Positions 5,265 to 29,372 are shown, numbered from the stretch's first letter. The stretch: DNA of 64,000 nucleotides from Eubacteriales bacterium (GCA_045544255.1 JAZPYP010000028.1:13064-77063), one strand, 5' to 3'. Numbers and translations: made by a program. Notes: generated by a model from the letters alone, not told the origin.

Positions 5265-5280
5265 TCTGCTTTTTTATAAA

Positions 5281-6465: not shown

Positions 6466-6479
6466 TATTATTCCCTTTC

Positions 6480-10444: not shown

Positions 10445-10465
10445 AGGTTTTGCGTTCCTCCCAAA

Positions 10466-11677: not shown

Positions 11678-11722
11678 AAAAAATAAATGGGCGCACCATT
11701 CCCGATCAGGAATGGGGCGCCC
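11678..11722 (-). terminator. Intrinsic terminator (riboswitch expression platform)
   Basis: GGGCGCCCCAUUCC-UGAUCG-GGAAUGGUGCGCCC followed by AUUUAUUUUUU, then the AAAGGAGG RBS and the purE ATG. Confidence 0.78.
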
Positions 11723-11788
11723 AGACGGTCGGCATTATTGTTCTTTGTTCCCCTGTGGTAAACCACTAATTCCGTCAGTTACAAAGAA
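11678..11788 (-). promoter_or_regulatory. ZTP (pfl-motif) riboswitch with terminator expression platform, leader of the pur operon
   Basis: Minus-strand RNA elements: P1 UUCUUUGU/ACAAAGAA; ACUGACGG; P2 GUGG-UUUA-CCAC; GGGGA; a 12-nt linker; then CCGUCUGGGCGC, where CCGUC pairs with GACGG as a pseudoknot. The UGGGCGC overlaps the 5' arm of the terminator. Confidence 0.82.
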
Positions 11789-11806
11789 CTTCAAAAGACA
11801 TTAAAA

Positions 11807-14900: not shown

Positions 14901-15096
14901 CCGCAAACTCCAGATCCTCTATCGATTCGATTTTGAATTCTTTAGAAGAGGAGTTGCCCGCCTCCTGCACCGAAGGGATTACGGAGAGAGCAGACTCTTC
15001 AAGAGCCACTGCGGAAAACGCAAAAACAGACATCAACGCCATGATGACGCTGATAGCAGCAACAATCGAAAGCACACGCGTACTTCGTCTGTACAT
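11962..15096 (-). CDS. Secreted dockerin-containing surface protein with two tandem large repeat modules (beta-helix-like), function unknown
   Basis: 1044 aa. N-terminal signal/TM segment (RVLSIVAAISVIMALMSVFAFSA). Duplicated modules at aa ~55-395 and ~543-860. C-terminal type-I dockerin (GDVTGDGTVSVADVV ... NLNGDPIVDTADAV). Confidence 0.8.
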   Translation of the reverse strand: MYRRSTRVLSIVAAISVIMALMSVFAFSAVALEESALSVIPSVQEAGNSSSKEFKIESIEDLEFAGNNESLFDSADTIYLAKSLNLIGNKQFTGFEGLKASFDGMGNMIYGWSAASKGLFYNCPMASIKNLTLYKVKLDASGMGGAQWPALVFGMQQAALSTLQSTFTMENVHVKECELTRYDGNDTGAAILLSRYRVGSKVTVNITDCSIIDTAIVGKAAKNNVAAIMGGVSMNVAADSVFNISNILIDGFSHQMAANHCGILFGEMRRNMNISNIAVFNSSLSALGNENGDPCDASVIGRVFEGPIKLKNILLANNALASQEGKAFITAMHDSASSVAVTYDGVYTSDAYKAYEGADKAVISKDLSAFKSGEVAYLASSDSFAWSMKEGLPAIGSSADRIRKIAVSGAADKVIYANTGAKVEFSSVLPGYVFTADAGILDESASIYEVPSSDAALTAYASNSIEGKAVAALAYFANRDASYYASGLEEAIALCKEKLSAGTLASSDVETLISYKENYKADLSAPDYPSISDAKLYSGMKGFMIGNIDDLLAAAERRDLDADVTLYLASDLDLQGVDFKGFSGVSFSFNGMGHVIKNWSATSRGFFDWYSGNSISNLKFDGASLTWPTSDGVGLVVGRRYTSAPADFLMKNVHVSNSIVVNDGYMIDDGGAILFGGVSRPVNTAETALLSFGSGKMIRLENCSVVDTEISGNARQRVAAAIGYAWGGFDYELLNVEANGFTNRADDLAGILIGEAEGAEVSIKNAGVFASSGAPTVVAAIGDGGIVSADNFLAAESGALTEGVIYTNSYADVEAEGVTTVALAAFKNSEVAWKANEAAKVWKVGETFGYPSLFGSASPLKITFKNIEGEKVFYTNSEGVLLLDAEEQNAIRAMLESEDWVYDADNKEFSSIDNVFDRDTIVFGSTLLNREAASKVDALIEAIGTVSVDSGEAIKEAREAFDALTDDQKECVALLNDLVAAEDLFARLGDVTGDGTVSVADVVRILRFINGKITAAGLDAEAANLNGDPIVDTADAVLICKKIL

Positions 15097-15302: not shown

Positions 15303-18300
15303 ATGAAACGCAAAAGAGTCATTGCGGCAATCACCGCCGCAGTTTTATGCGTAGCCATGCTGGCGACCTGCGCCATCACCTTCACTCTTGGCTATGCCGA
15401 TTCTTTTTATTCATCTTTTGAAGACAACGAGAAAAATGCATTTTTAGCCAATACCGCCGATAAGGACGGAAGCGGCAACGCAAGAGTACAGGGGTTGGGT
15501 TATCCTCTAACAGATGCTTCAGGAACAATCGCAGATTTCACCGCCAGTGTTACAGCGACCGAGCAAACCACCGGCCATAACGGAAGCACCGCAGCAAGTT
15601 TGAAAGATAGCAACTCTTCTACCAAATATATTACCGCCGTTGGTAATAGCAAAGCATATATCATTTACACTTTAAATCAACCTTATGTTTTGCAAAAGTA
15701 TACCATTACAACCGCTAATGATACTGCAACCTACGGGCGCCATCCCAAAGATTGGACACTCTACGGTTCCAACGATAAATCCACATGGATTCCCTTGGAC
15801 CGACAAACCAATCAAAGTTATGTTGCAAATTTCCATGTAAGCACTTATAACATTAAAAATTCCACTCCATTCCTTTATTATAAATTGGACATCACCAAAA
15901 ATGATGGCCAAAATATGATTCAAATTGCCGATTGGAATCTTTATGGATTCACTTCGTTGGTTGGCGATTTCACTTCCGATGTTGTTAAGGTGGAAGGTAC
16001 CGCCTCCCGCAACAATCGCGAAGTGATCGGAAACTTGAGCGATAGCAGCTCCGGCACTAAATATCTTGTTGATGGCGGGAGCGCCACGATTACCTATACC
16101 CTTTCAAAGGCGCAGGCAATGGCTTCTTATTCTCTCACCTCCGCCAATGATGAACCCACTCGCGATCCCAAGGCCTGGACTTTGCAGGGCTCCAACGATA
16201 ACGCTCAATGGGCAACCCTTGATACCCGCAGCGAAATCACCTTTGCAGATCGCTACGAAACCAAGATTTTTACCACTGCTAATACCGCGGCTTATAAATA
16301 CTATAAGCTTTCCATTACTGCAAATAATGGCGCAGGAATGATGCAGCTTGCAGATTGGAATCTGGCCAGCAATCAAGCCGGTACCGCGGGGCTTTTCACC
16401 ACCTTGAGCTCCGGCCCCAAGGGATCCTACAGCAATTTTTCCGATCGGGGCTGGACAGGAGCCAAAGCCTTGGCAATCCGCTCCTCTCAAACCGATGAAA
16501 ATGCATATGGTTATAATGTAATTTATAAGGATGTTGACCTCTATGTTGGTAAAAACACTCAACTTTCTTATATGATTTATCCCGATTATGTTGGCAGCGA
16601 TAAGGTTGCCGATTATGATACAGAATATACCTCTCACCATATTTCTGTTGACTTAAAATTCACCGACGGAACCTATTTGAGCAATTTGAATGCCGCCGAT
16701 CAAAACGGCGACATTGTAGCCCCCGATGCGCAAGGCCAAAGCCACGCTCTCTATACCAAGCAATGGAATCAAATCAAAACCAAGATCGGTCAAGTTGCAA
16801 AAGGCAAGGTTATCGATCAAATTTTGATTGCTTTCAAGAAAGATGAAAAGAAGGCCCACGATTCTCTTGGTGTTCTCGCCTATATCGATGATATCAAAAT
16901 TGAGACAGCCGAAAAGAAGGTTCGGAAAAATCAACTTTCCTATACCATGACCCGTCGCGGTTCACAAAGCTCCAGTTCCTTCTCTCGCGGCCTGACCTTC
17001 CCCGGAACCACTTATCCCAACGGATTTAATTTCTGGTCCATGAGCACCAACGAAAAATGGGGAAAATCTGCGGATGGCACCTTCTTTAATTATCAACCGG
17101 GCAACGATATTACCCATTTCACCATCACTCATCAGGCAAACTATTGGATCGGTGATTGGGGCACCTTCCAATTTATGCCCTATACTGCAGAAAACCTTTC
17201 CTCTGCTACCGAGGCACCCACTGCTGCCCAGCGCAAGAGTGATTACAACCGCGATACTTTGGTGGATCAAGCCAATTATTTAAAGGTTGATTTTGCCGAT
17301 GGCACCAAAGCAGCAGGCACTACTGTTGAATTGGTTCCCACCAACCATGGCGCATCTATCAAATTTTCCTTTGATAAAAATGTAAACAAAAATATTATTT
17401 TTGATTCGGTTAATGCAACTGCAAACTGCCAGTTTACCTTTAATGCAGATGGTTCCTTCCAAGGCCGAACCACTCATACCGGCACCGGTATGGTAAGCGG
17501 AGCGCCCTATATGTATTTCTACGGAACCTTCAGCAAAACCCCCGCCGCCACCAAGGTAATCAGCGCTTCTTCTGCTGATGCAATCGCAACCTTCTCCGAT
17601 ACTGAAGTGGTCATGAATCTTGCCACTTCCTTCATCAGCGCTGATCAGGCCAAGCATAATCTTGAGCTGGAAATCGGCGATAAATCTTTCAAAAAGGTTT
17701 ATAAAGAAACCGAGGCAGCATGGCTCGATATTATGGATCGCATCGAGATCGAAGGCGGCACCGAAGAGCAATTAACCACCTTCTGGTCGGCAATCTACCG
17801 CGCTTATATGTATCCTAACACCATGGCTGAAAATCAGGGCACAAACGAAGCGCCGAAACCGGTATATGCTTCCCCCTATTCTGCCGATCCCGCTGCACCC
17901 GAAATCAAGGAAGGAAATCTTTACTATAATAATGGTTTCTGGGATACCGCAAGAACCACTCCGGGTGTTTATCCCTTATTAACCCCCACTGCCTATGGCG
18001 AATATTTAGATGGCTTTATTGAGCATTATAAAGAAAGCGGTTGGATCGGCCGCTGGATCGCACCCAACGCTATCAACAGCATGGTTGGCACCCATTCCGA
18101 TGCCATGATCGCCGATGCCTATTTGAGAGGCATTGAATTCGATTATGAGAGTGGATTGGAATCTGCACTGCGCAATGCATCCGGCTATTCCTCAAATGTT
18201 ATCTACGGAAGAGAAATGACCGAAACCTCCAACTATGTTGGTTATGTGAATAATTCCTTGCGACAAGGCATGAGCTGGTCTTTGGAGAGCTATCTCAACG

Positions 18301-20258
18301 ATGCCGCCATTGCAAAACTTGCCCAAAAATTGGGCGATAAAGATATCGCAACCTATTATGGCAACCGCGCGCTTTACTACACTAAACTATTCAATGATGA
18401 AGTTGGGTTCTTCATGGGTAAAGATGCTTCCGGCAACTGGAGCACCGATGCAAGCAGCTATAATCCCCGCATTTGGAATGCCGACTATACCGAAACCAAT
18501 GGTTGGAACTATGCTTTCTCTGTGCCCTATGATGGCCAAGGCCTTGCCAATCTCTATGGCGGAAAGAAGCAGCTTGAAGAAAAGCTTGATGAATTCTTAT
18601 CCACCGATAGCCAGATTGTTTTAGGCGGCGAGCGGCCCACCAGCGATAGAACCATTCATGAGATGCTGGAGCAGCGAGAGGTTCGCCTTGGAGAATATGC
18701 CCATTCCAATCAGCCCTCGCATCATGCACTCTTTATGTATAACTATGCCAATGCCCCTGAAAAGACTCAATATTATACAAGAGATATTCTCGATCGCCTT
18801 TATGTTGGCTCCTCTATCGGCCAAGGCATGGTAGGCGATGAAGATAATGGTGAATCTTCCAGCTGGTTTATCCAAGCCTCTATGGGCATCTTTGCCGCCA
18901 ATGTTGGCTCCGGTAACTATACCTTCACCGCTCCCCTCTTTGATAAAGTAACCTTGCATTTAGAGAACGGAAACGACCTTGTAATCAAGGCAAACAACAA
19001 CAGCGATGAAAATGTATATATCCAAAGCCTGACCATCGATGGCAAGGCCTATAATTCCACTGTTATTTCTCATCAGGAATTCATTAACGCAAAAGAGATC
19101 GTATTTGAGATGGGCAATACTCCCTCCGAATGGGGCAAAACCGAGGATTCCCTCGATTCCATCACCACCGGAAAAGAGATTGCAACTCCTATGGAAGATC
19201 TCATGCCCTCTACTGTTGCAACCAGCCTTCCCGCAGCGAACGCAAGCGGAAACGCTGTTTATTCCACCACTGATGTGAAATGGATGGTAGACAACACCAA
19301 CTATTCTTATACCGGCATCAACAGCAAGAATGCTTCTGTTTACGCCTACTTTGAGAAGGGTGCTGTTATTGAGATGTATACCATCTCCACCTATGAAAAT
19401 ATAACCAATATGCCCACCACCGCCGCCCTTTACGGTTCCAATAACGGAAACGATTGGACCAAGCTAGATGAGCACAAGAACATCACCTTCAAGTGGCAAC
19501 GCTATGTGGAGCCCTTTGCAGTTGATAACGATGCTTCTTATAAGTATTATCGCTTGGATCTTTCCACCACTGCTTCCAGCATGATCATCGGTGAATTGGA
19601 GCTCTACGGATATCCTTATGCAGGCGCCAATCAAGAAGCTTTGAGCAAGTTAATTACTGAGGCCAAAGCGATTGATCAAAGCAAATATGGCACCGCTCTT
19701 ACATCCTTTAACGAAGCTATTGCAAAGGCGGAAGAAATCCATGCAAATTCCAACGCAACAGTGAAAGAGATTTATCAAGCCATGACCGCTTTGCAAGACG
19801 AAATGAAAGCTATTGCGCCTTCCGATGGTACCGCTAAAATTGAAGCCGAAAAATGCACTGCTTATAGCAATTTGGTTCTTGATGTTAATGCAGCGCGCTC
19901 CGGCGGCGGTAATCTCGGCGGCGTTAAACCGAATTCCTATGCATCATATAACTTCTTGGATTTCGGAAGCGGAGTAAGCAAGATCAAGATCAACTATTCC
20001 AGAAAGAACGGCGCCGATAATGGCGTTGTGCAAAGTCCGGATGCCACTGTTAAGATCTATATCGATGCCCTTCCTGCTGATGGCGGCACTTTGGTCGGCA
20101 CCATTTCGGAGCCCGCTTATACTGCTACCACTTGGGGAACTTATTTAGATCTTTCCACCAATCTTTCTTCTAATATTACAGGTATTCACACCGTTTACCT
20201 GGTATTTGAAGGAACCGGTCCGTGCGTTATCAATCTGGACTATTTCCAATTCTCATAA
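15303..20258 (+). CDS. Secreted multidomain GH92-like alpha-mannosidase with F5/8-type-C (CBM32-like) modules, a FIVAR-like helix and a C-terminal CBM6/35-like module
   Basis: 1651 aa with a signal peptide. GH92-like core motifs: GFWDTARTTPGVYPLL, MVGTHSDAMIADAYLRGI, EYAHSNQPSHHALFMYNY and GDEDNGESSSWF. Three discoidin-like repeats (DWTLYGSND, AWTLQGSND, ALYGSNNG). RBS AAGGAG. Confidence 0.8.
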   Translation: MKRKRVIAAITAAVLCVAMLATCAITFTLGYADSFYSSFEDNEKNAFLANTADKDGSGNARVQGLGYPLTDASGTIADFTASVTATEQTTGHNGSTAASLKDSNSSTKYITAVGNSKAYIIYTLNQPYVLQKYTITTANDTATYGRHPKDWTLYGSNDKSTWIPLDRQTNQSYVANFHVSTYNIKNSTPFLYYKLDITKNDGQNMIQIADWNLYGFTSLVGDFTSDVVKVEGTASRNNREVIGNLSDSSSGTKYLVDGGSATITYTLSKAQAMASYSLTSANDEPTRDPKAWTLQGSNDNAQWATLDTRSEITFADRYETKIFTTANTAAYKYYKLSITANNGAGMMQLADWNLASNQAGTAGLFTTLSSGPKGSYSNFSDRGWTGAKALAIRSSQTDENAYGYNVIYKDVDLYVGKNTQLSYMIYPDYVGSDKVADYDTEYTSHHISVDLKFTDGTYLSNLNAADQNGDIVAPDAQGQSHALYTKQWNQIKTKIGQVAKGKVIDQILIAFKKDEKKAHDSLGVLAYIDDIKIETAEKKVRKNQLSYTMTRRGSQSSSSFSRGLTFPGTTYPNGFNFWSMSTNEKWGKSADGTFFNYQPGNDITHFTITHQANYWIGDWGTFQFMPYTAENLSSATEAPTAAQRKSDYNRDTLVDQANYLKVDFADGTKAAGTTVELVPTNHGASIKFSFDKNVNKNIIFDSVNATANCQFTFNADGSFQGRTTHTGTGMVSGAPYMYFYGTFSKTPAATKVISASSADAIATFSDTEVVMNLATSFISADQAKHNLELEIGDKSFKKVYKETEAAWLDIMDRIEIEGGTEEQLTTFWSAIYRAYMYPNTMAENQGTNEAPKPVYASPYSADPAAPEIKEGNLYYNNGFWDTARTTPGVYPLLTPTAYGEYLDGFIEHYKESGWIGRWIAPNAINSMVGTHSDAMIADAYLRGIEFDYESGLESALRNASGYSSNVIYGREMTETSNYVGYVNNSLRQGMSWSLESYLNDAAIAKLAQKLGDKDIATYYGNRALYYTKLFNDEVGFFMGKDASGNWSTDASSYNPRIWNADYTETNGWNYAFSVPYDGQGLANLYGGKKQLEEKLDEFLSTDSQIVLGGERPTSDRTIHEMLEQREVRLGEYAHSNQPSHHALFMYNYANAPEKTQYYTRDILDRLYVGSSIGQGMVGDEDNGESSSWFIQASMGIFAANVGSGNYTFTAPLFDKVTLHLENGNDLVIKANNNSDENVYIQSLTIDGKAYNSTVISHQEFINAKEIVFEMGNTPSEWGKTEDSLDSITTGKEIATPMEDLMPSTVATSLPAANASGNAVYSTTDVKWMVDNTNYSYTGINSKNASVYAYFEKGAVIEMYTISTYENITNMPTTAALYGSNNGNDWTKLDEHKNITFKWQRYVEPFAVDNDASYKYYRLDLSTTASSMIIGELELYGYPYAGANQEALSKLITEAKAIDQSKYGTALTSFNEAIAKAEEIHANSNATVKEIYQAMTALQDEMKAIAPSDGTAKIEAEKCTAYSNLVLDVNAARSGGGNLGGVKPNSYASYNFLDFGSGVSKIKINYSRKNGADNGVVQSPDATVKIYIDALPADGGTLVGTISEPAYTATTWGTYLDLSTNLSSNITGIHTVYLVFEGTGPCVINLDYFQFS

Positions 20259-20271: not shown

Positions 20272-20314
20272 AAAAAAACATCCCGAAGGGGCGCCCCTTC
20301 GGGATGTTTTTTAT
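20272..20314. terminator. Bidirectional intrinsic terminator shared by convergent genes
   Basis: Perfect hairpin ACAUCCCGAAGGGG-CG-CCCCUUCGGGAUGU flanked by A7 on the left and T6 on the right. Confidence 0.85.
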
Positions 20315-21096
20315 TTTCGCATAGCGCGGGGAGATTTGCCGAATTTAGCTGAAAAACGGCGGGAAAAATTCACATAATCATTAAATCCCGCAGTTGAACA
20401 AATTTCCGAGGAAGGCAGATCAGTGGTTCGGAGCAGATGCGAAGCATAATAAAAACGCAGGCTATCCACATATTCCTTAAAGCTCTGCCCCGTTTCCTGC
20501 TTAAAAAGAGTGCTTAAATAAGCGGGCGCAAGGCCTATATGTTCGGCGGTAGAAACCAAGGTGATCCCTGTGCGGAAATGCTCTAAAATATAAACAATAG
20601 CAGCCTGAACATGGGAATCCGGACGCTTTTTTTGCTTTGGAGCAAGTTGGAAAGCCTTTAGCAACACACACCGCAAAAAATGCAAGGCATTTTCCGGCTC
20701 CTTTTCGCAAAGCTCGATCGCCTCTTCCAAAAGCTTTTGAATCAAAGGCTGATCCTTTTCCGGAATGCGAAAGGAAGGATCGCGATTGGGCTGAAATAAA
20801 ACATAAAGCAATTCAGGCTCAAATACCGCGCAGGGGAACATAACAGTAACCCATTTGGCATGATAAACTTTAATATGATGAAAATCAGCAGGAGAATTCA
20901 GAAAAAGAGAACCGGGGGCAACTGTATAATTAAATCCGTTAATACTGTACTCACCATGACCTTCGTAAAAATAATCAAGTTCAAAGCAATCGTGGCTATG
21001 ATCCATTGGTCCCCCTTCATTTTCATGAAGAACCGCCGATATAATCCCCTTTTCGACATAGTTTTTAAGATAAAATATCCGCAAAGTAACCCTCAC
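20311..21096 (-). CDS. AraC-family transcriptional regulator (cupin sensor + HTH)
   Basis: 261-aa ORF with an N-terminal AraC-type cupin (HSHDCFELDYFYEGHG) and a C-terminal AraC HTH (GFNDYVNFSRRFSAKFGKSPR). The start is uncertain; ATG at 21006, after AGGGGGA, is an alternative. Confidence 0.85.
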   Translation of the reverse strand: MRVTLRIFYLKNYVEKGIISAVLHENEGGPMDHSHDCFELDYFYEGHGEYSINGFNYTVAPGSLFLNSPADFHHIKVYHAKWVTVMFPCAVFEPELLYVLFQPNRDPSFRIPEKDQPLIQKLLEEAIELCEKEPENALHFLRCVLLKAFQLAPKQKKRPDSHVQAAIVYILEHFRTGITLVSTAEHIGLAPAYLSTLFKQETGQSFKEYVDSLRFYYASHLLRTTDLPSSEICSTAGFNDYVNFSRRFSAKFGKSPRAMRK

Positions 21097-21173
21097 CCCC
21101 TATGCTTCATTATAATACAAAATCATAAAAATACAATACGACTCATCGTAGACATTCCAAAATGATCTGCCAT

Positions 21174-22040
21174 TTACTCAACACGCCGCTTATAGCTCAT
21201 TGGAGTGGCTCCAACATATTTTTTAAATACCTTTATAAAATAGGAGCAGTCATTAAATCCGCAATCGTAGCACGCTTCTGTTACATCTGCACCTTTGCTC
21301 AGAAGTTCCTTAGCAAGGGCGATTTTTTTGGCTTGAATATATGTCTTTAAAGGCGTTCCGACCTGATGGCTGAAATAACTGGAAAGATATTGAGGCGAGA
21401 ACCCTAAAGCATCGGAAATCTCTGTGACAGATTGCAGCTCGGCAGTATGATCCGCAACATAGCGAAGGATCCTTTTTAAAACTTCAGGCGTATGAGCAGT
21501 TTGAAGTTCTAAAGGCTCATCAATCTTTAAAAAGCGATCAATTTCATCAAGCAAAGATAAAAACAAACTCAAGGCACGCAGCTGATCATCTTTCCCCTCT
21601 TTAAAGCAATCACTGATCCCATAAAGGATATTAAGTATTTTGGGGCGAACAGACTCATCAAAAGAAATCAAATTACTGCGCCCATCAAGCTTATTTAAAA
21701 TAGGAAGAAGCGGATTCAAATGCATTCTATCAAAACTTTGCAAATCAACCAAAAAATAAAACCGCTCATATAAAACCTCTTTACTCAAAAGAGCCTTATG
21801 CACTTCTCGCGGGTTTATGATAACGATATCCCCTTTTTTTAATTTATAAAGGGAATTTTCAACAATATACTGATGATCCCCTTCGATATAAACATAAATC
21901 TCAACATAATTATTAATATGAAGAACATGTTTTTCCGGCCGATCCATGCTCCGATTATGAACAAACCGAATTGGAATACTTTCCTGCATCGCTATAAGAT
22001 CTGCGCTGATTCGAAAAAGATCGTTCATTTTTCTCTCCAT
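21174..22040 (-). CDS. AraC-family transcriptional regulator (cupin sensor + HTH)
   Basis: 288 aa. Motifs HINNYVEIYVYIEGDH and GFNDCSYFIKVFKKYVGATP. Divergent from the glycyl-radical operon. Confidence 0.85.
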   Translation of the reverse strand: MERKMNDLFRISADLIAMQESIPIRFVHNRSMDRPEKHVLHINNYVEIYVYIEGDHQYIVENSLYKLKKGDIVIINPREVHKALLSKEVLYERFYFLVDLQSFDRMHLNPLLPILNKLDGRSNLISFDESVRPKILNILYGISDCFKEGKDDQLRALSLFLSLLDEIDRFLKIDEPLELQTAHTPEVLKRILRYVADHTAELQSVTEISDALGFSPQYLSSYFSHQVGTPLKTYIQAKKIALAKELLSKGADVTEACYDCGFNDCSYFIKVFKKYVGATPMSYKRRVE

Positions 22041-22143
22041 CTTAAAAAATTACCATTTTTAGCGATAAAACTCCTATTAATAAGAGTTTTTCAATGCTAT
22101 TATATAAACAACAAAGAAAAAAGTCAAGGAGGAGATATACGAG

Positions 22144-24036
22144 ATGTATGTTTCAATTTTTTCAGACGAGTTGTTCAAGGATATCCACGAGGTATTACCC
22201 ATCATTAAAGAATGGGGCATGACTCATGTTGATTTTCGCGGAATGATCAATGGCAAGCCCATTGAAAAGCAAACCGACGAAGAGCTTTATGAACTTAAAG
22301 CTGCATTGGATCATTATGGCATCAAGCCCGGAATTATCCAATCCTCTCTTTGCAAGGTCCATCTGCCCGATGCAGAGCGGCAGGCACAGGAGATGGAAAA
22401 ATTAGAGGGCATTATTCGCGCCGCCAATATTTTAGGAACCAAATATGTGCGCAGCTTTTTCTATTGGCAGCATAAGCAAGAGGATCCCGCCTGCGGGGAG
22501 CTTGCCATGCGCCCCGATGCGTTAGCAGAGGTTTTGGAGATGTTTAAGCCTATTGCCAAGCGGGCAAAAGAAGCGGGGCTGATCCTTGCCTTTGAAAACT
22601 GCGGCGTTACTCCCGATGAAGTTATCTGCTTCTTGGATGCCCTCGGCAATCCCGATTGGGGAATGGCTTGGGATGTATCCAATATGTTTGAATTGCTTCC
22701 CGAAGCCCAAGACGACTGCGTTGACTACTTCACCAAAGCATTGAAATATGCCAATATGGTCCATGTGAAATCCCGCGGCGTTGCCACTCTTCCTCAATTA
22801 AAATATAAAAAAGTGCCTTGGGATCGCGTTTTAGCCGGTGTTGCTGTAACGGGCAAAGATATGGCTATATCGATTGAAACCCATGTGCCCATCGAGGCCA
22901 ATCTTGATAAAATTGAAACTTGCAAACATGTATATGAATATGTAAAGAAAAATATCCCCGCATCGGCTCCCGGAGATATGCTCTCCGCCCTTTCCCCTAA
23001 GCTTCGCTTTGAACGCCCTTATGCAGATAATCCTGTAAAGATGGTTGTTGTTGGCCTTGGAATGGGAAAAAATCGATGCGCACAGATCGCAGAAACCAAT
23101 GGCATTGAGCTTTATGGTGTTTGCGATATTAATGAAGAAAAAGCAAAAGCGGTTGCTGAGATGTATCATGTTCCCTACTCTACCGATTATCATGATTACC
23201 TTAAGGATCCTGCAGTCGAAGTTATGTATATCGTTACTCCCACCGGCACCCACTGCGACATTGCCATGGAATGCTTTGAAGCAGGCAAGCATGTTCTGAC
23301 CACGAAACCGATGGATGTGAACTACAAAAAATGCGACGAGGCCATTGCAATGGCCAAGGAAAAAGGGCTGCTTTTCGGCGTTGATTTCGATCTTCATTTC
23401 CGCGGCCCCTTAACAGAGCTGAAGCAAGCGGTTGATCACGGCTTCTTCGGGGAAAAGATTTTGGGAGCAAATATCACCCTAAATATTCGCCGCTCTCAAG
23501 AATACTATGATGAAAACGACGGCTGGAGAGGCACTTGGGCCATGGATGGCGGCGGGGCTTTAAGCAATCAAGGTATTCATGAAATCAATCGTTTGATCAC
23601 TATTTTAGGAATCCCCGATGAAGTGCGCGCCACCACCGCAACGCAATCCTTTGATATTGAGGCAGAGGATTATGGCTGCACCGAATGGAAATATAAAAAC
23701 GGAGCCATCGCCAGATTTGCAGTAACCACCTCTTTCCTTGCTTCCTCTTGGTATAGCCGCGTTGAGGTATATGGCAAGAAGGGCGCATACTTAAATGTTA
23801 GCGGCGGCGCGGAAGGCACCAACATTAGTTGGTATAGCGATGGGAAATGGACAGAAGAGGCCCCCTTCCCCTATGAAAGAGAATGGCAGCAGGGCAGCGA
23901 TAACTTTGCTTATTGCCTGCGAATGGGCACCCCTCTTGCTGTTACTGCAGAAGACGGAAGATGCGCCCGCTATGTTTTGGATAAAATCTATGAAAGCGCC
24001 AAGAATGGCGGCGAATGGACCAAAGTTGGTCTTTAA
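22144..24036 (+). CDS. Fusion protein: xylose-isomerase-like TIM barrel (sugar-phosphate isomerase/epimerase family) + Gfo/Idh/MocA NAD(P)-oxidoreductase
   Basis: 630 aa. N-terminal half carries TIM-barrel family traits (KYVRSF, LAFENCG, HVKS). C-terminal half has a Rossmann motif (KMVVVGLGMGKNR) and a HVLTTKPM (EKP-like) motif. RBS AAGGAGGAG. Confidence 0.78.
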   Translation: MYVSIFSDELFKDIHEVLPIIKEWGMTHVDFRGMINGKPIEKQTDEELYELKAALDHYGIKPGIIQSSLCKVHLPDAERQAQEMEKLEGIIRAANILGTKYVRSFFYWQHKQEDPACGELAMRPDALAEVLEMFKPIAKRAKEAGLILAFENCGVTPDEVICFLDALGNPDWGMAWDVSNMFELLPEAQDDCVDYFTKALKYANMVHVKSRGVATLPQLKYKKVPWDRVLAGVAVTGKDMAISIETHVPIEANLDKIETCKHVYEYVKKNIPASAPGDMLSALSPKLRFERPYADNPVKMVVVGLGMGKNRCAQIAETNGIELYGVCDINEEKAKAVAEMYHVPYSTDYHDYLKDPAVEVMYIVTPTGTHCDIAMECFEAGKHVLTTKPMDVNYKKCDEAIAMAKEKGLLFGVDFDLHFRGPLTELKQAVDHGFFGEKILGANITLNIRRSQEYYDENDGWRGTWAMDGGGALSNQGIHEINRLITILGIPDEVRATTATQSFDIEAEDYGCTEWKYKNGAIARFAVTTSFLASSWYSRVEVYGKKGAYLNVSGGAEGTNISWYSDGKWTEEAPFPYEREWQQGSDNFAYCLRMGTPLAVTAEDGRCARYVLDKIYESAKNGGEWTKVGL

Positions 24037-24048
24037 AAGGATAAAATA

Positions 24049-24945
24049 ATGAAACATTTAATTACCGATATCCAGCGATTTTCTTTAAACGACGGCCCCG
24101 GAATTCGAACAACAGTATTCTTTAAAGGATGCAACATGCACTGCTCTTGGTGCCATAATCCGGAAACCTTATCCACCAAAGAAAATTTAATGTTTTACCC
24201 TGCTAAATGCATTGGTTGCGGCAAGTGCTTCAGCACCTGCCCGCAAGGTGCTCATCAGGTAATCAATAATAAGCATATTATTGATCGCGCGCTCTGCAAT
24301 AATTGCGGAAAATGCGCCGCAATTTGCTATGCAGAAGCTTTGGTTATCAGCGGAAAAGAGATGACCATTGAGGAGATTATGGCAGAGGTGCGGCAGGATA
24401 AGGCTTATTATGAAGCATCCGGCGGTGGCGTTACCCTATCCGGTGGCGAAGTTCTTTGCCATGCCGATTTTGCATTGGAGCTTGCAAAAGCCTGCCATCA
24501 AGAAGGGATCTCTGTTGCCATCGAAACAAATCTTTCCTTCCCTCTTGACCAAATTCGCCCCCTTTTGGAGGAGATCGATTTAATAATGGCAGATTGCAAG
24601 ATTTATGATAATGCCATTCACAAAAAATATACCGGCATTGGGAATGAGCATATTTTAGAGAACATTCGCGCCATTAAAGAGCTTCCTATAATCATTCGCA
24701 CCCCACTGATTCCGGGCGTTACTGCATTTAAAGAAAATTTGCGAGCCATCGCGGCAGAACTTTCAAAAAAGGAAAATCTTCTTTATTACCAGTTGCTCAA
24801 TTTTAATCCTTTGGGCAGCGGGAAATATCAAAGCTTAGATTTTAAAAACGAATTTGCTTCTGCGCACCCTTATTCAGATGCGGAAATGAAGAAATTTGGC
24901 GAGATGCTTGCTGATATTTCGGTGAAAGTGAAGGTGGGTGAATAA
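24049..24945 (+). CDS. Glycyl-radical enzyme activating protein (radical SAM, with auxiliary ferredoxin-like clusters)
   Basis: 298 aa. N-terminus DIQRFSLNDGPGIRTTVFFKGCNMHCSWCHNPE (CX3CX2C), plus CIGCGKCFSTCP and CNNCGKCAAICY. Confidence 0.92.
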   Translation: MKHLITDIQRFSLNDGPGIRTTVFFKGCNMHCSWCHNPETLSTKENLMFYPAKCIGCGKCFSTCPQGAHQVINNKHIIDRALCNNCGKCAAICYAEALVISGKEMTIEEIMAEVRQDKAYYEASGGGVTLSGGEVLCHADFALELAKACHQEGISVAIETNLSFPLDQIRPLLEEIDLIMADCKIYDNAIHKKYTGIGNEHILENIRAIKELPIIIRTPLIPGVTAFKENLRAIAAELSKKENLLYYQLLNFNPLGSGKYQSLDFKNEFASAHPYSDAEMKKFGEMLADISVKVKVGE

Positions 24946-24946
24946 A

Positions 24947-27178
24947 ATGTCGAAGATTTGCTTTGTTAATACCTATCCAAAAGAAGCTCGTTATTCCTAT
25001 GAAGAGCGAATCGCGCTTCTTCGAGCGCGCAAGGTTGCGCAAACAGAAGAAAAAGCCAAAAATGGTGGCGCCGACGAGGATGATTACGGCTTGATCGAGC
25101 AAGATGAATTTCGTTTTGAACTAAAACCCAATCATGAAAACGGCTCCATTTATGGCTACGAAGCGTGGGCAGAAAACTATACCCGACTTCTTGAAAACCA
25201 TCCGATCTATTGCGATCCGATGGATGCATTTGTTGGAAAAGGCTTTTTATTTTTGGAGCGGTTGCGTCCCAAAACCTGCAAATGGAACCCTGCCTATCCC
25301 TTCGATGAATTAAAAAAGATCTTTGATCAATATAATATCATCTCCGGCATTGATAATTGCCACCACTTCACCCCTGATCTGCAGATCGGTTTCGACCTTG
25401 GATGGGGCGGGATCCTTCAAAAACTCAAGGAAGAAAAGGAAAAGCATGATAAAACTCATCATCGCTTCTATAATGCGGAAATTGCTGTGGTTGAAGCGAT
25501 TATCGCCTTTTTAAACCGCGCCGCCGACGAGCTTTTGCGGCTGTCAAAAGAAGAACGCAATACGCAACTTTCCGAAAATCTCTTGCAAATGGCGATCATG
25601 AATCGCAAACTTTCGGCCGGAAAGCCGGAAACCTTTAAAGAGGCAATCCAGTGGATGTGTTGGTTTAGTATGCTCTCTCGCACCTATAATCGCGGCAGCG
25701 CCGGCGGGCAATTAGACGAGATGCTCCGCCCCTATTATGAGCGCGATATTGCCGAAGGGCGCCTCGATGATGAGGAGGCAGTCTTTTATCTTGCCTGCCT
25801 TTTTCTGCAAGATAGCCGCTATTTTCAGTTAGGCGGCCCCGATATTCATGGCGAAGATATGACCTCAAAAGTTTCTTATCTTGCATTAGAAGCCGCAGAT
25901 AAAATAAATATTGCCTGCAATCTAACCATTCGCGTTCATGATAAAATGAATGAAGATTTCTTCCTGAAATCCATCGAATATCTTTTTAAGAATAAACAAG
26001 GTTGGCCGCGATATTCCTCGGATAACGCTTTAGTTGAAGGGTTTATGAAATGCGGATATTCCAAGGAACTTGCAAGAAGAAGAGTAGCCGCGGGCTGCCA
26101 TTGGATGTGTATCCCCGGAATGGAATATACCATGAACGATACCGTTAAGGTAAACCTTGCCCGCACCTTTGAAGTGGCATATAACGAAATGATGAAAGAG
26201 GGCTCCCCTTCTGTGGATCATCTTTTTATGCTTTACCGAAAGCATCTTAAAATTGCGGTAGATGCCACCGGTGCAGGTATTATGCATCATCTGCGGTATC
26301 AGACCGAAAGCCAGCCGGAGCTGATTTTAAACCTCTTTCAGCATGGGTTGATTGAAAAAGGCGTTAATATCACCGATGGCGGGGCCAACTATTATAACAT
26401 GTGTGTAGATGGAAGCGGTCTTGCAGTTGTTGCCGATAGTTTCGCCGCATTAGAGCAAAGAATCGAGCAAGAACAAAAACTAACCTATGAGGAACTTGAT
26501 TTACATATTAAAGCCAACTACGAAGATCCCGACGGGGAATATATCCGACAGTTGATGCTCCATAGTCAGCGCTATGGCGGAGGCGATTCTTTAGGAGATC
26601 GATGGGCAGGAAAAATCAAGGATCTTTATACCGAGCTTGTAAGAGATCTTTGCCGGCAGCATTCCGGAATCAACTTTATCCCCGGATTCTTTTCATGGAG
26701 CAACACCATTCTTTTAGGTAAAAGCGTTGGCGCAACGCCAAACGGAAGAAAAAGCGGAACGCCTATCAACCATGGTGCAAATCCATGCAGCGGATTTCGA
26801 GCAGATGGCGCTGTAACCTCTATGTGCAACAGCATCGCAAGGGTGCAGCCGGGTTACGGCAACACCGCACCGGTCCAGCTTGAGGTAGACCCCGGCATCG
26901 GCAACGATGCGGAAGGGATAAGAAAGATGGCTGCCATGGTTAAAACCATTATGAATACCGGCAACACTCTTTTAAATATCAATATTATTGATACCGATAA
27001 AATTTTAGAAGCGCATAAAGATCCTTTTAAATATCCCGATCTTGTTGTTCGCGTTACCGGTTTTACCGCTTATTTTGCCATGCTTTCTCCCGAATTTCGG
27101 CAGTTAGTGGTAGATCGCATCACCTCTGTTAACCCAAGACAACTAAAAAACGAAAAGGAGCAAAAAAATGATTACTGA
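24947..27178 (+). CDS. Glycyl radical enzyme of unassigned specificity (PFL2/dehydratase-like fold class)
   Basis: About 743 aa from ATG 24947, with RBS AAGGTGG upstream. C-terminal glycyl radical motif VVRVTGFTAYF (Gly codon at 27059-27061). Candidate Cys loop AAGCHWMCIPG lies about 320 residues upstream (Cys codon at 26096-26098). Confidence 0.9.
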   Translation: MSKICFVNTYPKEARYSYEERIALLRARKVAQTEEKAKNGGADEDDYGLIEQDEFRFELKPNHENGSIYGYEAWAENYTRLLENHPIYCDPMDAFVGKGFLFLERLRPKTCKWNPAYPFDELKKIFDQYNIISGIDNCHHFTPDLQIGFDLGWGGILQKLKEEKEKHDKTHHRFYNAEIAVVEAIIAFLNRAADELLRLSKEERNTQLSENLLQMAIMNRKLSAGKPETFKEAIQWMCWFSMLSRTYNRGSAGGQLDEMLRPYYERDIAEGRLDDEEAVFYLACLFLQDSRYFQLGGPDIHGEDMTSKVSYLALEAADKINIACNLTIRVHDKMNEDFFLKSIEYLFKNKQGWPRYSSDNALVEGFMKCGYSKELARRRVAAGCHWMCIPGMEYTMNDTVKVNLARTFEVAYNEMMKEGSPSVDHLFMLYRKHLKIAVDATGAGIMHHLRYQTESQPELILNLFQHGLIEKGVNITDGGANYYNMCVDGSGLAVVADSFAALEQRIEQEQKLTYEELDLHIKANYEDPDGEYIRQLMLHSQRYGGGDSLGDRWAGKIKDLYTELVRDLCRQHSGINFIPGFFSWSNTILLGKSVGATPNGRKSGTPINHGANPCSGFRADGAVTSMCNSIARVQPGYGNTAPVQLEVDPGIGNDAEGIRKMAAMVKTIMNTGNTLLNINIIDTDKILEAHKDPFKYPDLVVRVTGFTAYFAMLSPEFRQLVVDRITSVNPRQLKNEKEQKNDY

Positions 27179-27974
27179 AAAAGGCCAATTTTTGGCATGG
27201 GAAACCATAGATACTTCTGAAGAAAAACTGCGCAGATTGCCGATGTGTCAAGGAGAGATCCCCGGCACCACCCCCTATCATCTTACCATTCCCGCGGGGC
27301 AGACCTATAAGCTTGAAGCAGATGAGGCGCATTATCATATCTTTATTCTGATTGAAGGCGAATGTCTCATGGTTTCAGGCGGAACCGAAAAACTTTTCAA
27401 TGAGCGCGTTACCTTTGTTGGCGCACCGGAAGATGAGCTGATTCTTTCCGCCAAAACAACTCTTCAGCTTGTTGAGATCGAATGGAATATCACCAGTGAA
27501 GACATTAAGCTTCGGGCGGATTATAAAACCGAATTCCCCCTTATCATCAACTATGCCGATTCCATTCAATATGTTGATCCCAATAAGAGCCCGAAAACAA
27601 TCAGCCGCATGATGATTCCCCATAAAATGATTCCCCGCTTTGCCATTGGCTCGGTTGAATCTTATGGATATGATCTGGTGCGTCCTCATTCTCATCCGAT
27701 GCTGGATCAATTCTTCTTCTCTTTCCCCGAAAATCAGATGGATCTTATTATCAATGATGAGAAGATCCCTATGGGCGGCAATGTGATTGTGCATATTCCT
27801 CTTGGCGCTGATCATGGTGTTGAAGTAACCGGAACCGATCATATGCACTATATGTGGATCGATTTCCTGCCCGATAATGAAGCAGGGCTTGCCCGCCTTG
27901 ATAAGAGCCATAAGCCTACCGGCACTGTTCGAGATCTTTCTAAAGAAGATAAATTCAGAAATAATGATAAATAA
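27168..27974 (+). CDS. Cupin-fold protein, function unknown (size and architecture of KduI/IolB-type sugar isomerases; unverified)
   Basis: 268 aa. Cupin metal motif region RPHSHPMLDQFFF ... HIPLGADHGV. RBS AAAGGAG. The start overlaps the GRE stop by 11 nt. Confidence 0.6.
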   Translation: MITEKGQFLAWETIDTSEEKLRRLPMCQGEIPGTTPYHLTIPAGQTYKLEADEAHYHIFILIEGECLMVSGGTEKLFNERVTFVGAPEDELILSAKTTLQLVEIEWNITSEDIKLRADYKTEFPLIINYADSIQYVDPNKSPKTISRMMIPHKMIPRFAIGSVESYGYDLVRPHSHPMLDQFFFSFPENQMDLIINDEKIPMGGNVIVHIPLGADHGVEVTGTDHMHYMWIDFLPDNEAGLARLDKSHKPTGTVRDLSKEDKFRNNDK

Positions 27975-27975
27975 G

Positions 27976-29055
27976 ATGAAAACAATTGATCTTTCAAAGC
28001 CCATTAAACTTCTCTCTTCGCGGGCTTGGCGCACTTATTTGGGCGGTAAAATGATTTCCCTGCTCCATGGTGAATGCGGGGAAGATGAGCATTTCCCCGA
28101 AGAATGGCTTATGTCTACCGTTGCGGCGCGCAATAGCGGCAGAGAGCATATTATTGAGGGAATCACCAAAATCGCAGAAACCGATCAAACTCTTGCAGAA
28201 CTGATAGAGAAAAACCCCATTACCCTATTAGGCGCTGATCATATTGAAAGGCATGGTCATTCCCTTGGAGTGTTGGTGAAGCTTTTGGATGCCGCCGAGC
28301 GGCTCACCCTGCAGGTTCATCCCTCAAAAGAGCGAGCAAGAGAACTATTTCAATCGGAATTCGGAAAAACTGAATGCTGGCATATTATTGACTCCCGAAA
28401 AATCAACAATGAGAAGCCATGCATCTATATCGGCTTTAAAGAAAGCATCACCCGCGCATATTGGAAGGAATGCTTTGAAAGTCAGGATATCCCCGCTATG
28501 CTGAATTGCCTTCATAAAGTTGAGGTTCAAACAGGAGATACCTTTATCATCCGCGGAGGTGTTCCCCACGGAATCGGTGCCGGATGCTTCTTGGTGGAAA
28601 TCCAGGAGCCTACCGACTATACTGTTCGTACCGAGCGGGTAACACCTTCCGGTTTTGAGGTTGCGGATTTTATGTGCCACCAAGGCCTTGGATTTGAGAA
28701 GATGTTTGATTGTTTCTCCTATGAGGGTGCTTCTCTTTCCAAAACTCTGGATCTTTATAAAGTTGAACCAATTAAAGAAAATCATAATGATTTCTCCATA
28801 GAACATCTGATCTATCCTGCTATTACCGATCTCTTCTCCATGGATATGATCTCTGTAAAAGGCCAAGCAGAGATTGACTGCGATCGATTCAGCGGAATCT
28901 ATGTTTTAGAAGGTGAAGGAACGCTCAATGGTGAGCCTGTTCAACCTTGTGATCATTATTTCCTTGGCAATGATTGCAAGCATCTGAGCATCAATGCAAA
29001 TAAAGAGAAACCTTTAAAAATCATTCGATGCTTCGGCCCGAATGTGAATCTATAA
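27976..29055 (+). CDS. Type I phosphomannose-isomerase-like cupin isomerase
   Basis: Start trimmed to MKTIDLSKPIKLLSSRAWRTYLGG, 1 nt after the cupin stop. PMI-type motifs LTLQVHPSKE, GKTECWHII and GVPHGIGAG. Confidence 0.78.
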   Translation: MKTIDLSKPIKLLSSRAWRTYLGGKMISLLHGECGEDEHFPEEWLMSTVAARNSGREHIIEGITKIAETDQTLAELIEKNPITLLGADHIERHGHSLGVLVKLLDAAERLTLQVHPSKERARELFQSEFGKTECWHIIDSRKINNEKPCIYIGFKESITRAYWKECFESQDIPAMLNCLHKVEVQTGDTFIIRGGVPHGIGAGCFLVEIQEPTDYTVRTERVTPSGFEVADFMCHQGLGFEKMFDCFSYEGASLSKTLDLYKVEPIKENHNDFSIEHLIYPAITDLFSMDMISVKGQAEIDCDRFSGIYVLEGEGTLNGEPVQPCDHYFLGNDCKHLSINANKEKPLKIIRCFGPNVNL

Positions 29056-29090
29056 AAAATCCCCACCTATTTGTACGGTGGGGATTTTTT
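29056..29090 (+). terminator. Intrinsic terminator of the glycyl-radical operon
   Basis: AAUCCCCACC-UAUUUGUAC-GGUGGGGAUU followed by UUUU, immediately after the stop. Confidence 0.8.
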
Positions 29091-29200
29091 CGCTCGTTGC
29101 TAAAGCAAAAAGCCGCTTGTCGCAAAAAAGAGCACCCACATAAGTGAGTGCTCTTGAGATAGACAGGTTATCTCTTGGAGAACTGAGGAGCGCGACGAGC
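29091..29200. repeat. Tandem duplication, distal copy (rpsI 3' end + terminator region)
   Basis: Near-identical to 29240-29372, apart from a roughly 23-nt indel and a few substitutions. Confidence 0.85.
29168..29200 (-). pseudogene. Orphan duplicate of the last 10 codons + stop of rpsI
   Basis: The 33-nt string ttatctcttggagaactgaggagcgcgacgagc is identical to 29340-29372 (rpsI C-terminus RRAPQFSKR*). Confidence 0.8.
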
Positions 29201-29239
29201 AATCCGCCCTTGGCGTATTGCTGTGCAGATGCCCCCACT

Positions 29240-29372
29240 CGCTCGTTGCTAAAGCAACAACCGCTCGGGGATGGCAAAAAGCCGCTCGTCGCAAAAGAAA
29301 AGAGCACCCACATAAGTGAGTGCTCTTGAAATAGACAGGTTATCTCTTGGAGAACTGAGGAGCGCGACGAGC
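29240..29372. repeat. Tandem duplication, proximal copy (functional rpsI 3' end + terminator)
   Basis: See 29091-29200. The repeat period is 149-172 nt. Confidence 0.85.
29293..29327 (-). terminator. rpsI intrinsic terminator
   Basis: AGAGCACUCAC-UUAU-GUGGGUGCUCU followed by UUUCUUUU on the minus strand. A second copy sits at about 29125-29157. Confidence 0.75.

Follow-up and report, generated by a model that had tools for sequence, protein, structure and literature searches.

Glycyl radical enzymes (GREs) are the main means by which strict anaerobes achieve chemically difficult bond cleavages, and newly assigned GRE families have exposed gut routes for choline, hydroxyproline, isethionate and 1,5-anhydroglucitol. 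Other GRE clusters are known that are still uncharacterised. Here we analyse an operon of five plus-strand genes at positions 22144-29055 of a 64,000-nt stretch of DNA from a Eubacteriales bacterium (GCA_045544255.1 JAZPYP010000028.1:13064-77063; hereafter the window, to which coordinates refer). The operon is built around an oxygen-sensitive GRE and probably encodes an undescribed anaerobic step in carbohydrate breakdown. Its GRE falls in a clade that is uncharacterised and combines a new active-site signature with a pathway context that is both new and conserved.

Among GREs, all eliminases acting on C-O, C-N or C-S bonds, together with the three isomerases, keep a CXE motif, and a Cys-Cys pair is limited to PFL and TdcE (PMC13450708). 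The Glu of the CXE motif hydrogen-bonds or deprotonates the substrate in the eliminases and deprotonates the C2 hydroxyl in YbiW and PflD, while in glycerol dehydratase (GD) His164 is the proton donor to the leaving hydroxyl and Asp447 binds the diol (PMC13450708). Accessory subunits, where known in GREs, are small proteins of the Fe-S or rubredoxin-like kind, and YbiW and PflD are sugar-directed GRE isomerases that have been described since 2024 (PMC13450708). The latter two, the only characterised sugar-directed GREs, act in 'anhydroglycolysis', turning 1,5-anhydroglucitol-6-phosphate and 1,5-anhydromannitol-6-phosphate into 1-deoxyfructose-6-phosphate. A preliminary description of the present locus, made from the sequence, had omitted both from its list of known GREs, and sugar-directed radical chemistry is not new as such (PMC13450708). 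Keto-sugar formation is also described in pathways that pair a Gfo/Idh/MocA oxidoreductase with a TIM barrel, namely the glycoside 3-dehydrogenase route BT2156-2160, LgdA/B (levoglucosan), DgpA/BC (C-glycosides), YcjQRS (E. coli) and IolG/IolE/IolI.

The glycyl radical enzyme and its partners

Open reading frames (ORFs) of the window were scanned with Pfam and NCBIfam, the curated cut-offs of the latter serving as the family test. The third gene of the operon (24947-27178, plus strand) encodes a GRE of 743 aa, with a PFL-like match of 309.6 bits and a Gly_radical match of 50 bits. Its glycyl radical motif, R702-V-T-G705-F, is invariant in 29-32 homologues (Gly705 codon at 27059-27061), and Cys384 (codon 26096-26098) matches the catalytic Cys in alignments with GD, PflD, CutC and the A. 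fulgidus protein 2f3o. In three independent alignments, from phmmer, an hmmsearch profile and MAFFT, the loop around this residue reads G383-C384-H385-W386, placing Trp386 where the CXE Glu would stand; the Trp is invariant among the GRE homologues aligned. A profile alignment further matches His140 with GD His164, Tyr292 with GD Tyr339 and Asp398 with GD Asp447, and both His140 and Asp398 are invariant among the close homologues aligned. Three arginines, Arg245, Arg249 and Arg291, are invariant in close (at least 75% identical) homologues, and two of them, Arg245 and Arg291, remain so in the wider set.

Every NCBIfam GRE model scores the protein under its cut-off: TIGR01774 at 267 vs 678, HypD at 193 vs 1100, CutC at 188 vs 1050, HpsG at 207 vs 1000, HpfG at 173 vs 1000, the PFL model TIGR01255 at 74.5 vs 994, and the decarboxylase models NF033715 and NF033718 at 107 vs 1150 and 131 vs 1100. 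The best PDB sequence matches, at about 188 bits, are A. fulgidus 2f3o (deposited as pyruvate formate-lyase 2) and E. coli PflD. An AlphaFold2 model (pLDDT 76.8, pTM 0.80), compared with solved structures by Foldseek, superposes on all solved GREs with TM 0.70-0.76 at 18-22% identity, in keeping with a Cys loop set inside a 10-stranded barrel. On sequence criteria the enzyme has all the hallmarks of the superfamily yet falls in no characterised family. The preliminary description had named, as grounds for its refutation, tight clustering with a characterised family together with shared active-site residues; scores under all cut-offs, identities of 18-22% and the missing CXE motif show no such clustering.

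To place the Cys loop in the family at large, we searched 1.84 billion 50%-identity representatives and used 96 full-length GREs for motif counts. C-x-E occurs in 60 of the 96 and C-x-W in 26; inside the C-x-W clade the equivalent of Asp398 is kept in 26/26, that of His140 in 23/26, and Tyr or Phe at position 292 in 22/26. The clade consists of a handful of full-length relatives at 38-54% identity to the window GRE and a further group at 26-34%. None of the solved or reviewed GREs has C-x-W, and no characterised member of the clade was found. Source annotations of the homologues read 'formate acetyltransferase'. The family is abundant, with more than 120 clusters (at 90% identity) that are 75% or more identical to the window protein, and is under very strong constraint.

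One clade member (P0252, 40% identical) is a natural activase-GRE fusion of 1052 aa, whose N-terminal activase part (residues ~16-230) carries radical SAM and two ferredoxin-like motifs. A single-polypeptide activase-GRE of this kind could aid in vitro activation studies.

In the window, activation is predicted to be the task of the gene directly upstream (24049-24945, plus strand), whose 298-aa radical SAM product matches the GRE activase model TIGR02494 at 335 bits vs a cut-off of 174 and, judging from its motifs, installs the glycyl radical on Gly705. Besides C28x3C32x2C35 (CNMHCSWC) it holds CIGCGKCFSTC and CNNCGKCAAIC, corresponding to two auxiliary ferredoxin-like clusters. The first gene of the operon (22144-24036, plus strand) encodes a 630-aa TIM-barrel::Gfo/Idh/MocA fusion. 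Its xylose-isomerase-like TIM half matches AP_endonuc_2 (64.8 bits, residues 21-211) and is followed by an NAD(P) oxidoreductase domain, GFO_IDH_MocA (89.8 bits, residues 299-625), with C-terminal Gfo/Idh/MocA domains. All NCBIfam equivalogs score the fusion well under cut-off, the best being IolG (102.8 vs 355) and the BT_2158- and BT_2159-family dehydrogenases reaching 30.2 vs 750 and 28.7 vs 650. Nearest to the oxidoreductase domain among solved structures are the sugar 3-dehydrogenases WlbA (3q2i/3q2k), glucuronide 3-dehydrogenase (8tdi) and DgpA, with glucose-fructose oxidoreductase (GFOR) and 1,5-anhydrofructose reductase also near, while the TIM half gave no meaningful match in the PDB (E 0.04) and none in NCBIfam.

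Downstream of the GRE lies the gene for a metal-binding protein of 268 aa (27168-27974, plus strand). A 268-aa cupin had been noticed here; its AlphaFold2 model (pLDDT 93.4) makes it, more exactly, a bicupin. The C-terminal barrel holds an invariant metal motif, H174-x-H176...D180/Q181...H216. The fold search returned generic bicupins alone, at 7-15% identity and including the isomerases BacB and IolB-like 2qjv, and so gave no specific function; there is no KduI/IolB Pfam match and no NCBIfam match. Among 5.8 billion proteins searched the bicupin has 252 homologues, the best 120 of which are at least 54% identical. The last gene (27976-29055, plus strand) encodes a 359-aa cupin isomerase of the class I mannose-6-phosphate isomerase (PMI) type (PMI_typeI_cat, 31.7 bits), which scores 75.7 vs 116.2 against the ManA equivalog TIGR00218 and whose closest solved structures are 1qwr and 1zx5 (E ~1e-12). 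Residues Q113, H115, E133 and H198, which from the PMI motif pattern we take to be its Zn ligands, are invariant in 17 homologues. The best 120 matches in a protein search are at least 53% identical, with no distant relatives among the matches listed. Its start at 27976 is favoured over a 392-aa ORF because homologues measure 346-363 aa.

The five genes, in the order fusion, activase, GRE, bicupin and PMI-like, are translationally coupled. An RBS (ribosome-binding site), aggagg, precedes the fusion ATG at 22144; 12 nt separate fusion and activase and 1 nt activase and GRE, the bicupin gene overlaps the GRE stop codon by 11 nt, and the PMI-like ATG lies one base after the bicupin TAA, so that both of the latter junctions are as first read. 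The unit ends at an intrinsic terminator (29054-29090, plus strand), a perfectly complementary (100%) 14-bp inverted repeat (29054-29067 / 29077-29090) with a 9-nt loop and a T-run. ORFs, Pfam and NCBIfam matches, junctions and this hairpin agree with the earlier view of five coupled genes running from an AraC-flanked region to one terminator.

A divergent control region (22041-22143), its function inferred, separates the operon from the minus-strand gene of a 288-aa AraC-family regulator (21174-22040; HTH_18, 69.8 bits). It contains TTGACT-17-TATAAT (11/12 matches, 22127..22099, minus strand), which faces araC, and no strong plus-strand sigma-70 match; the latter is consistent with an activator-dependent promoter for the operon. 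An Rfam scan of the window found no riboswitch or leader tied to the operon. A second AraC-family gene lies beyond the first (20311-21096, minus strand; 261 aa, GTG start; HTH_18 66.6 bits, AraC_binding 28 bits). The two had been taken as a tandem pair of regulators, and both are present, but they differ in conservation: the proximal one has counterparts, 36-64% identical, that lie immediately upstream in many of the loci described below and point away from the operon, whereas the distal one reaches at most 28% tblastn identity in other loci and hence has no clear counterpart there. On this comparative evidence the proximal AraC protein is best regarded as the conserved regulator of the module.

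Conservation and genomic surroundings

Scanning one genome per species across 185,579 species yielded 70 loci, which were compared by tblastn, ORF clustering and Pfam annotation; 31 of them are well covered, having 5 kb or more of sequence to either side of the operon. The preliminary description had called the system an orphan, whereas it is in fact widespread in gut metagenomes. All 70 loci come from metagenome-assembled genomes (MAGs). The hosts are mostly Oscillospiraceae, Lachnospiraceae, Christensenellales and unclassified Clostridia, which were sampled from sheep, goat, yak, buffalo and the human gut (Hadza among others); a few are Spirochaetales and Victivallales/Lentisphaeria. The operon is widely conserved in uncultured gut and rumen bacteria, and the GRE family itself is limited to uncultured Clostridia of gut and rumen, apart from horizontal transfers to MAGs of Spirochaetales and Victivallales. 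Such transfer is indicated by a Spirochaetales MAG (L034) whose GRE is 76% identical to the Clostridia copies, and the module, by these identities, seems to move horizontally. Serine recombinase and tyrosine integrase genes sometimes adjoin the operon (L002, 15942-19315; L038, 18241-19284).

The order activase-GRE-bicupin is kept wherever the contig reaches. The TIM barrel and the Gfo/Idh/MocA protein are each found, fused or separate, in 30 of the 31 well-covered loci; they form an upstream fusion in 29 loci and elsewhere are separate downstream genes, loci of the unfused kind often carrying a further Gfo/Idh/MocA paralogue or two. AraC genes accompany 26 of the 31. PMI-like genes cluster in 43 loci, and tblastn finds none in five (L011, L034, L041, L043 and L061) despite ample downstream sequence, so that this gene is accessory; its role could be covered by a housekeeping isomerase. 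The GRE, 58-86% identical across loci, is more conserved than its partners (41-86%). The metal-dependent bicupin, the TIM barrel and the Gfo/Idh/MocA protein are obligatory partners of the GRE, and the PMI-type protein is a usual one. Co-conservation of the five-gene set therefore holds as proposed, so that the second ground for refutation fails too, with the PMI-like gene accessory and the TIM and Gfo/Idh/MocA parts sometimes split; of the two cupin isomerases originally listed as partners, the bicupin is always there but the PMI-like protein is not, being absent from those five loci. The usual companions of known GREs had been reported missing, and indeed no microcompartment shell, aldehyde dehydrogenase or alcohol dehydrogenase genes occur at the loci.

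Additional genes appear occasionally, among them an FAD oxidoreductase (12 loci), ABC permeases, a 2-hydroxyacid dehydrogenase (4 loci), esterases and an AEC/SBF-type carrier (Mem_trans) inserted in the operon (7 loci). In six loci (L018, L020, L024, L028, L037 and L067) the mannonate dehydratase UxuA (480 bits) and a short-chain dehydrogenase/reductase (SDR) are encoded directly upstream, as at 4297-6240 of L018; in L024 they stand immediately ahead of the GRE. These loci suggest an exit through 2-keto-3-deoxygluconate (KDG) in some genomes. A GDSL/SGNH esterase gene lies between activase and GRE in L064 (8913-10004), and in eight other loci a beta-lactamase-fold hydrolase is encoded directly before the activase; with such insertions in mind, the natural substrate may be an ester or acylated conjugate.

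More distant relatives of the GRE bear on the class of substrate. The operon of a 54%-identical GRE consists solely of a ribose-binding-protein-type ABC importer, activase, GRE and a ROK-family regulator, without any cupin. A 46%-identical GRE lies downstream of a CUT1 sugar ABC importer, an FAD oxidoreductase, LacI, two Gfo/Idh/MocA proteins and a small cupin, the last preceding the activase. The position of these two relatives beside sugar importers points to sugars that are taken up as such, and by analogy the GRE probably acts early, on the imported molecule or its keto derivative. Four distant C-x-W GREs (P0247, P0271, P0246 and P0251) have neighbourhoods that are unrelated or too short. 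At another locus, L080 (3521-8760; also L081), a 42%-identical C-x-W GRE and its activase are convergent with an NIR_SIR sulfite/nitrite reductase gene and lie beside a gene for a periplasmic-binding-domain/AraC hybrid regulator, which is the clade's sole hint of sulfonate chemistry.

Flanks of the operon vary from locus to locus, falling into 258 clusters that are mostly singletons. A pooled Pfam scan of 124 flank proteins detected no consistent glycoside hydrolase or transporter, and returned AraC proteins, extra TIM barrels, GH2, esterases and integrases at low counts; other loci have neither GH92 nor any one glycoside hydrolase as a recurrent neighbour of the operon. This bears on the mannoside or glycan neighbourhood that had been claimed for the window. 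There, one GH92 gene is found (15303-20258, plus strand), encoding a 1651-aa alpha-mannosidase-like protein with F5/8 type C, GH92_N, GH92 (429.8 bits) and CBM6 domains, and one dockerin gene, and since GH92 is not conserved the association is incidental. Given no recurrent glycoside hydrolase among the flanks, variable flanks and housekeeping surroundings in the window, we drop the mannoside link.

The dockerin gene (11962-15096, minus strand), divergent from that of the GH92 protein, encodes 1044 aa with a C-terminal type I dockerin as its sole Pfam match; standing beside a GH92/CBM6/F5-8 protein, it makes the host appear a relative of cellulosome-type Clostridium. Beyond these two genes the window is housekeeping, with a pur operon to the left and ValRS and FolC to the right. 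The purine operon (232-11146) includes PurL-, PurD-, PurH-, PurM-, PurF- and PurC-like genes and has upstream of it a ZMP/ZTP riboswitch (11712-11792, minus strand; Rfam RF01750, 65 bits). Right after the terminator of the GRE operon, a non-coding element of about 172 nt is tandemly duplicated (29090-29372); the 75-nt cores of the duplicate (29126-29200 and 29298-29372) are 99% identical, and each copy holds a hairpin, AAGAGCACCCAC...GTGAGTGCTCTT. A cluster of three tRNA genes lies at 50596-50828 (plus strand).

A proposed pathway and its alternatives

With slightly better than even confidence, we read the operon as an AraC-controlled catabolic module for a small carbohydrate-like compound, be it a sugar, an anhydro-, deoxy- or keto-sugar, a cyclitol or a sugar acid. 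A carbohydrate-type substrate as such is quite likely, as the partner enzymes and the sugar ABC transporters beside the 46-54% relatives both point to it. That the GRE performs radical C-O cleavage or isomerisation rather than some other type of reaction has a little under an even chance, and any single named substrate has at best an outside one. The sugar-directed radical pathway first proposed for the locus is partly supported, by sugar-type partners and by importers near relatives, but its substrate and reaction are still what we infer.

In the pathway that we envisage, the Gfo/Idh/MocA and TIM-barrel pair would make or reshape a keto-sugar by oxidation followed by epimerisation or beta-elimination, as in known pathways. 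A thiyl radical on Cys384 would take a hydrogen from the sugar ring, and the C-O bond beside the resulting radical would break, with loss of water or an alkoxy group or with opening of the ring ether. By alignment with GD, His140 may protonate the leaving group and Asp398 and Tyr292 may hold or position hydroxyls; Trp386, in the place of the catalytic Glu, probably stacks on the sugar ring, and with Trp for Glu the deprotonation of a hydroxyl by Glu would have to proceed in another way or be missing altogether. By aldose-to-ketose isomerisation, the bicupin and the PMI-like protein would next turn the product, open-chain or keto, into a common hexose of the mannose or fructose type, while UxuA-bearing genomes might exit via a hexuronate to KDG instead.

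Several points weigh against this scheme. Oxidation by a Gfo/Idh/MocA and TIM-barrel pair, followed by polar beta-elimination, can already manage most sugar C-O cleavages and leaves a radical step unexplained. The missing CXE Glu, as aligned, argues against a textbook eliminase or isomerase mechanism and makes room for C-C cleavage, epimerisation or rearrangement. Active-site loops of the GRE model (389-398, 584-589 and 609-625) have pLDDT below 50, so that the residue roles given above come from sequence alignment only. C-x-W members that are more distant (26-43% identity) occur in unrelated neighbourhoods. Finally, across the 70 loci the module has no constant kinase, aldolase or transporter, which makes its entry and exit points guesses.

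It is possible, if doubtful, that the C-x-W clade constitutes a new functional class of GREs that act on unphosphorylated sugars without Glu-assisted ketyl elimination. Tentative candidates for the chemistry of such a class are a radical ring-opening driven by the lone pair of the ring oxygen, C-C cleavage or rearrangement, and radical epimerisation, and the bicupin might, with equal reserve, be an enzyme devoted to a product absent from all known pathways. If true, Clostridia of the rumen and the human gut would have an anaerobic route, not seen before, for a plant-derived sugar.

Among more specific alternatives to a general carbohydrate module, a cyclitol pathway is unlikely. The substrate would be an inositol-type compound (myo- or chiro-inositol, a methyl-inositol such as pinitol, or a deoxy-inositol) or quinate/shikimate, with the fusion corresponding to IolI/IolE plus IolG, the bicupin to IolB, and the GRE serving for dehydration, demethoxylation or ring opening. 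IolG is indeed the top NCBIfam match of the oxidoreductase domain (102.8 bits), the TIM family PF01261 includes IolE and IolI, the IolB-like 2qjv is among the structural neighbours of the bicupin (TM 0.64), and the hosts are gut bacteria of herbivores and foragers, whose diets are rich in cyclitols. However, the Iol scores lie well under cut-off (for IolG, 355), the bicupin lacks an IolB/KduI Pfam match, and no IolC, IolD, IolJ or IolA gene occurs in any of the 70 loci; moreover, a PMI-type isomerase has no role in known cyclitol routes, and the canonical Iol pathway is already oxygen-independent.

A sugar-acid pathway, for which the probability is small, would start from a hexuronate or aldonate derivative such as a keto-uronate obtained from a glucuronide, or 4-O-methyl-glucuronate. 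Loss of water or of a substituent, catalysed by the GRE, would yield a keto-deoxy-uronate; the bicupin would be KduI-like and the route would end at KDG. Upstream UxuA and SDR genes in six loci, the AEC/SBF-type anion carrier in seven operons, the 2-hydroxyacid dehydrogenase in four loci, glucuronide 3-dehydrogenase 8tdi among the top matches of the oxidoreductase domain and the invariant arginines of the GRE are all in keeping with it. Yet UxuA, SDR, carrier and dehydrogenase genes are found in a minority of loci and none in the window, a KduI/IolB Pfam match is again wanting, and the 46-54% relatives adjoin ABC importers of neutral-sugar type; the C5-H of uronates being acidic, polar lyase chemistry would suffice.

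It is very unlikely that the module handles a sulfosugar, with the GRE cutting the C-S bond of sulfoquinovose or 6-deoxy-6-sulfofructose, the PMI-like protein acting as a sulfosugar isomerase (the sulfonate mimicking phosphate) and the other enzymes recycling the 6-deoxy-keto-hexose. C-S-cleaving GREs exist (PMC13450708), and a 2026 review lists no direct anaerobic desulfonation of a C6 sulfosugar, which leaves the niche open (PMC12890257); the invariant Arg245, Arg249 and Arg291 could bind an anion, and the 42%-identical GRE of L080 stands beside an NIR_SIR reductase and a sugar-sensor regulator. That neighbour is a single convergent gene, however. Across the 70 loci there is no recurrent sulfoquinovosidase, sulfite exporter or sulfite reductase, the Arg/Gln/Arg sulfonate triad of IslA and HpsG is unmatched in the window GRE, and the CXE Glu, kept by all known C-S lyases, is missing.

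Improbable to the same degree is a role for the bicupin, and perhaps for the PMI-like protein, as an accessory subunit of the GRE comparable to the small subunits of HPAD and benzylsuccinate synthase, which modulate radical installation or the access of substrate. Such a role would fit a gene that overlaps the GRE stop and follows the GRE in every locus extending far enough downstream, a family (252 homologues) essentially confined to the operon, and the small cupin ahead of the activase in the 46% relative. It sits poorly with the complete HxH...H metal motif of the bicupin, typical of catalytic cupins, and with the 54% relative, which has no cupin at all; known GRE accessory subunits are, besides, small Fe-S or rubredoxin-like proteins (PMC13450708). 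Hardly tenable, lastly, is the reading of the GRE as a mis-annotated pyruvate formate-lyase or glycerol/propanediol dehydratase among unrelated neighbours: homologue records do say 'formate acetyltransferase' and the best structural match is glycerol dehydratase 1r8w, but the protein has neither a Cys-Cys pair (TIGR01255, 74.5 vs 994) nor a CXE motif, the loci have no microcompartment shell, aldehyde dehydrogenase or alcohol dehydrogenase genes, and the partner genes are translationally coupled and co-conserved. Cut-offs, motifs and partner co-conservation effectively refute a PFL or diol dehydratase identity.

If we return to the carbohydrate module as the favoured reading, to identify its substrate would be to gain a reaction type for GREs or a new variant of mechanism, and would explain how herbivore and forager microbiomes use a plant carbohydrate that polar enzymes handle poorly. 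The GRE family is a good target for such work, being abundant, mechanistically atypical and without the catalytic Glu of every characterised eliminase and isomerase, and its invariant partner set is a ready-made in vitro pathway for reconstitution.

Comparison with characterised systems

Full-text literature searches and the June 2026 GRE review (PMC13450708) gave no description of this GRE family or partner set, in accordance with the earlier statement that the partner set is unlike that of any characterised GRE system. The formate-lyases PFL and TdcE have an adjacent Cys pair that the window GRE is without, and just its C-terminal 185 residues align to PFL. GRE decarboxylases (HPAD, IAD, PAD and AAD) have an acidic or polar residue at Cys+2 where the window GRE has Trp, and the small Fe-S subunit of HPAD has no corresponding gene in the operon. 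For the X-succinate synthases, just GRE residues 469-724 align to BSS and MASS (E ~1e-16), and small-subunit genes are absent. Aminoacyl radical enzymes carry the radical on Ala, Ser or Thr, whereas Gly705 of the window GRE is invariant.

The partners resemble components of described polar pathways. Gfo/Idh/MocA and TIM-barrel proteins are paired likewise in the keto-sugar pathways BT2156-2160, LgdA/B, DgpA/BC, YcjQRS and IolG/IolE/IolI, here even fused, and DgpA, WlbA and glucuronide 3-dehydrogenase are among the nearest solved relatives of the oxidoreductase domain. Those pathways, however, are all polar and without a radical enzyme, none includes a pair of bicupin and PMI-like protein, and the NCBIfam scores of the fusion for BT_2158/2159, LgdA and IolG are well under cut-off. 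Compared with the class I PMIs ManA and YvyI, the PMI-like protein keeps the Q/H/E/H metal site but scores under the ManA equivalog cut-off. With the bicupin isomerases KduI and IolB the window bicupin shares the fold and one metal site, its identity to any solved bicupin being 7-15%.

The 1,2-eliminating GREs (GD, PD, HypD, CutC, IslA/IseG and HpsG/HpfG) are closer. Best structural neighbours of the window GRE are found among them (1r8w, 9rco and 5i2a; E ~1e-30), its activase has two auxiliary clusters as in that group, and the equivalents of GD His164, Tyr339 and Asp447 are kept as His140, Tyr292 and Asp398. In contrast, the defining CXE Glu is missing, equivalog scores are 4-6 fold under cut-off, and microcompartment and aldehyde-processing genes are absent from the operon loci.

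The GRE isomerases (YbiW, PflD and HplG) likewise have the CXE motif that the window GRE lacks. YbiW and PflD nevertheless resemble it in fold, in having a single catalytic Cys, and in the Asp at Cys+14 that aligns with Asp398; they too are gut-bacterial, redox-neutral ring chemistry is plausible for them as for the window GRE, and PflD is among the top sequence and structure matches of the window GRE (8yjo, 188-234 bits, TM 0.73). They differ in that identity is 18-21% (8yjo, 8id0 and 8id7), in that Trp occupies the position of their CXE Glu, and in that their phosphotransferase-system and aldolase partners occur in none of the 70 loci, where Gfo/Idh/MocA, TIM-barrel, bicupin and PMI-like proteins stand instead. 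Furthermore, YbiW and PflD use a sugar-6-phosphate, whereas the substrate of the window GRE is probably not phosphorylated by an operon-encoded enzyme. YbiW and PflD are the closest functional analogues of this GRE, and the B12-independent diol dehydratases are its closest structural analogues.

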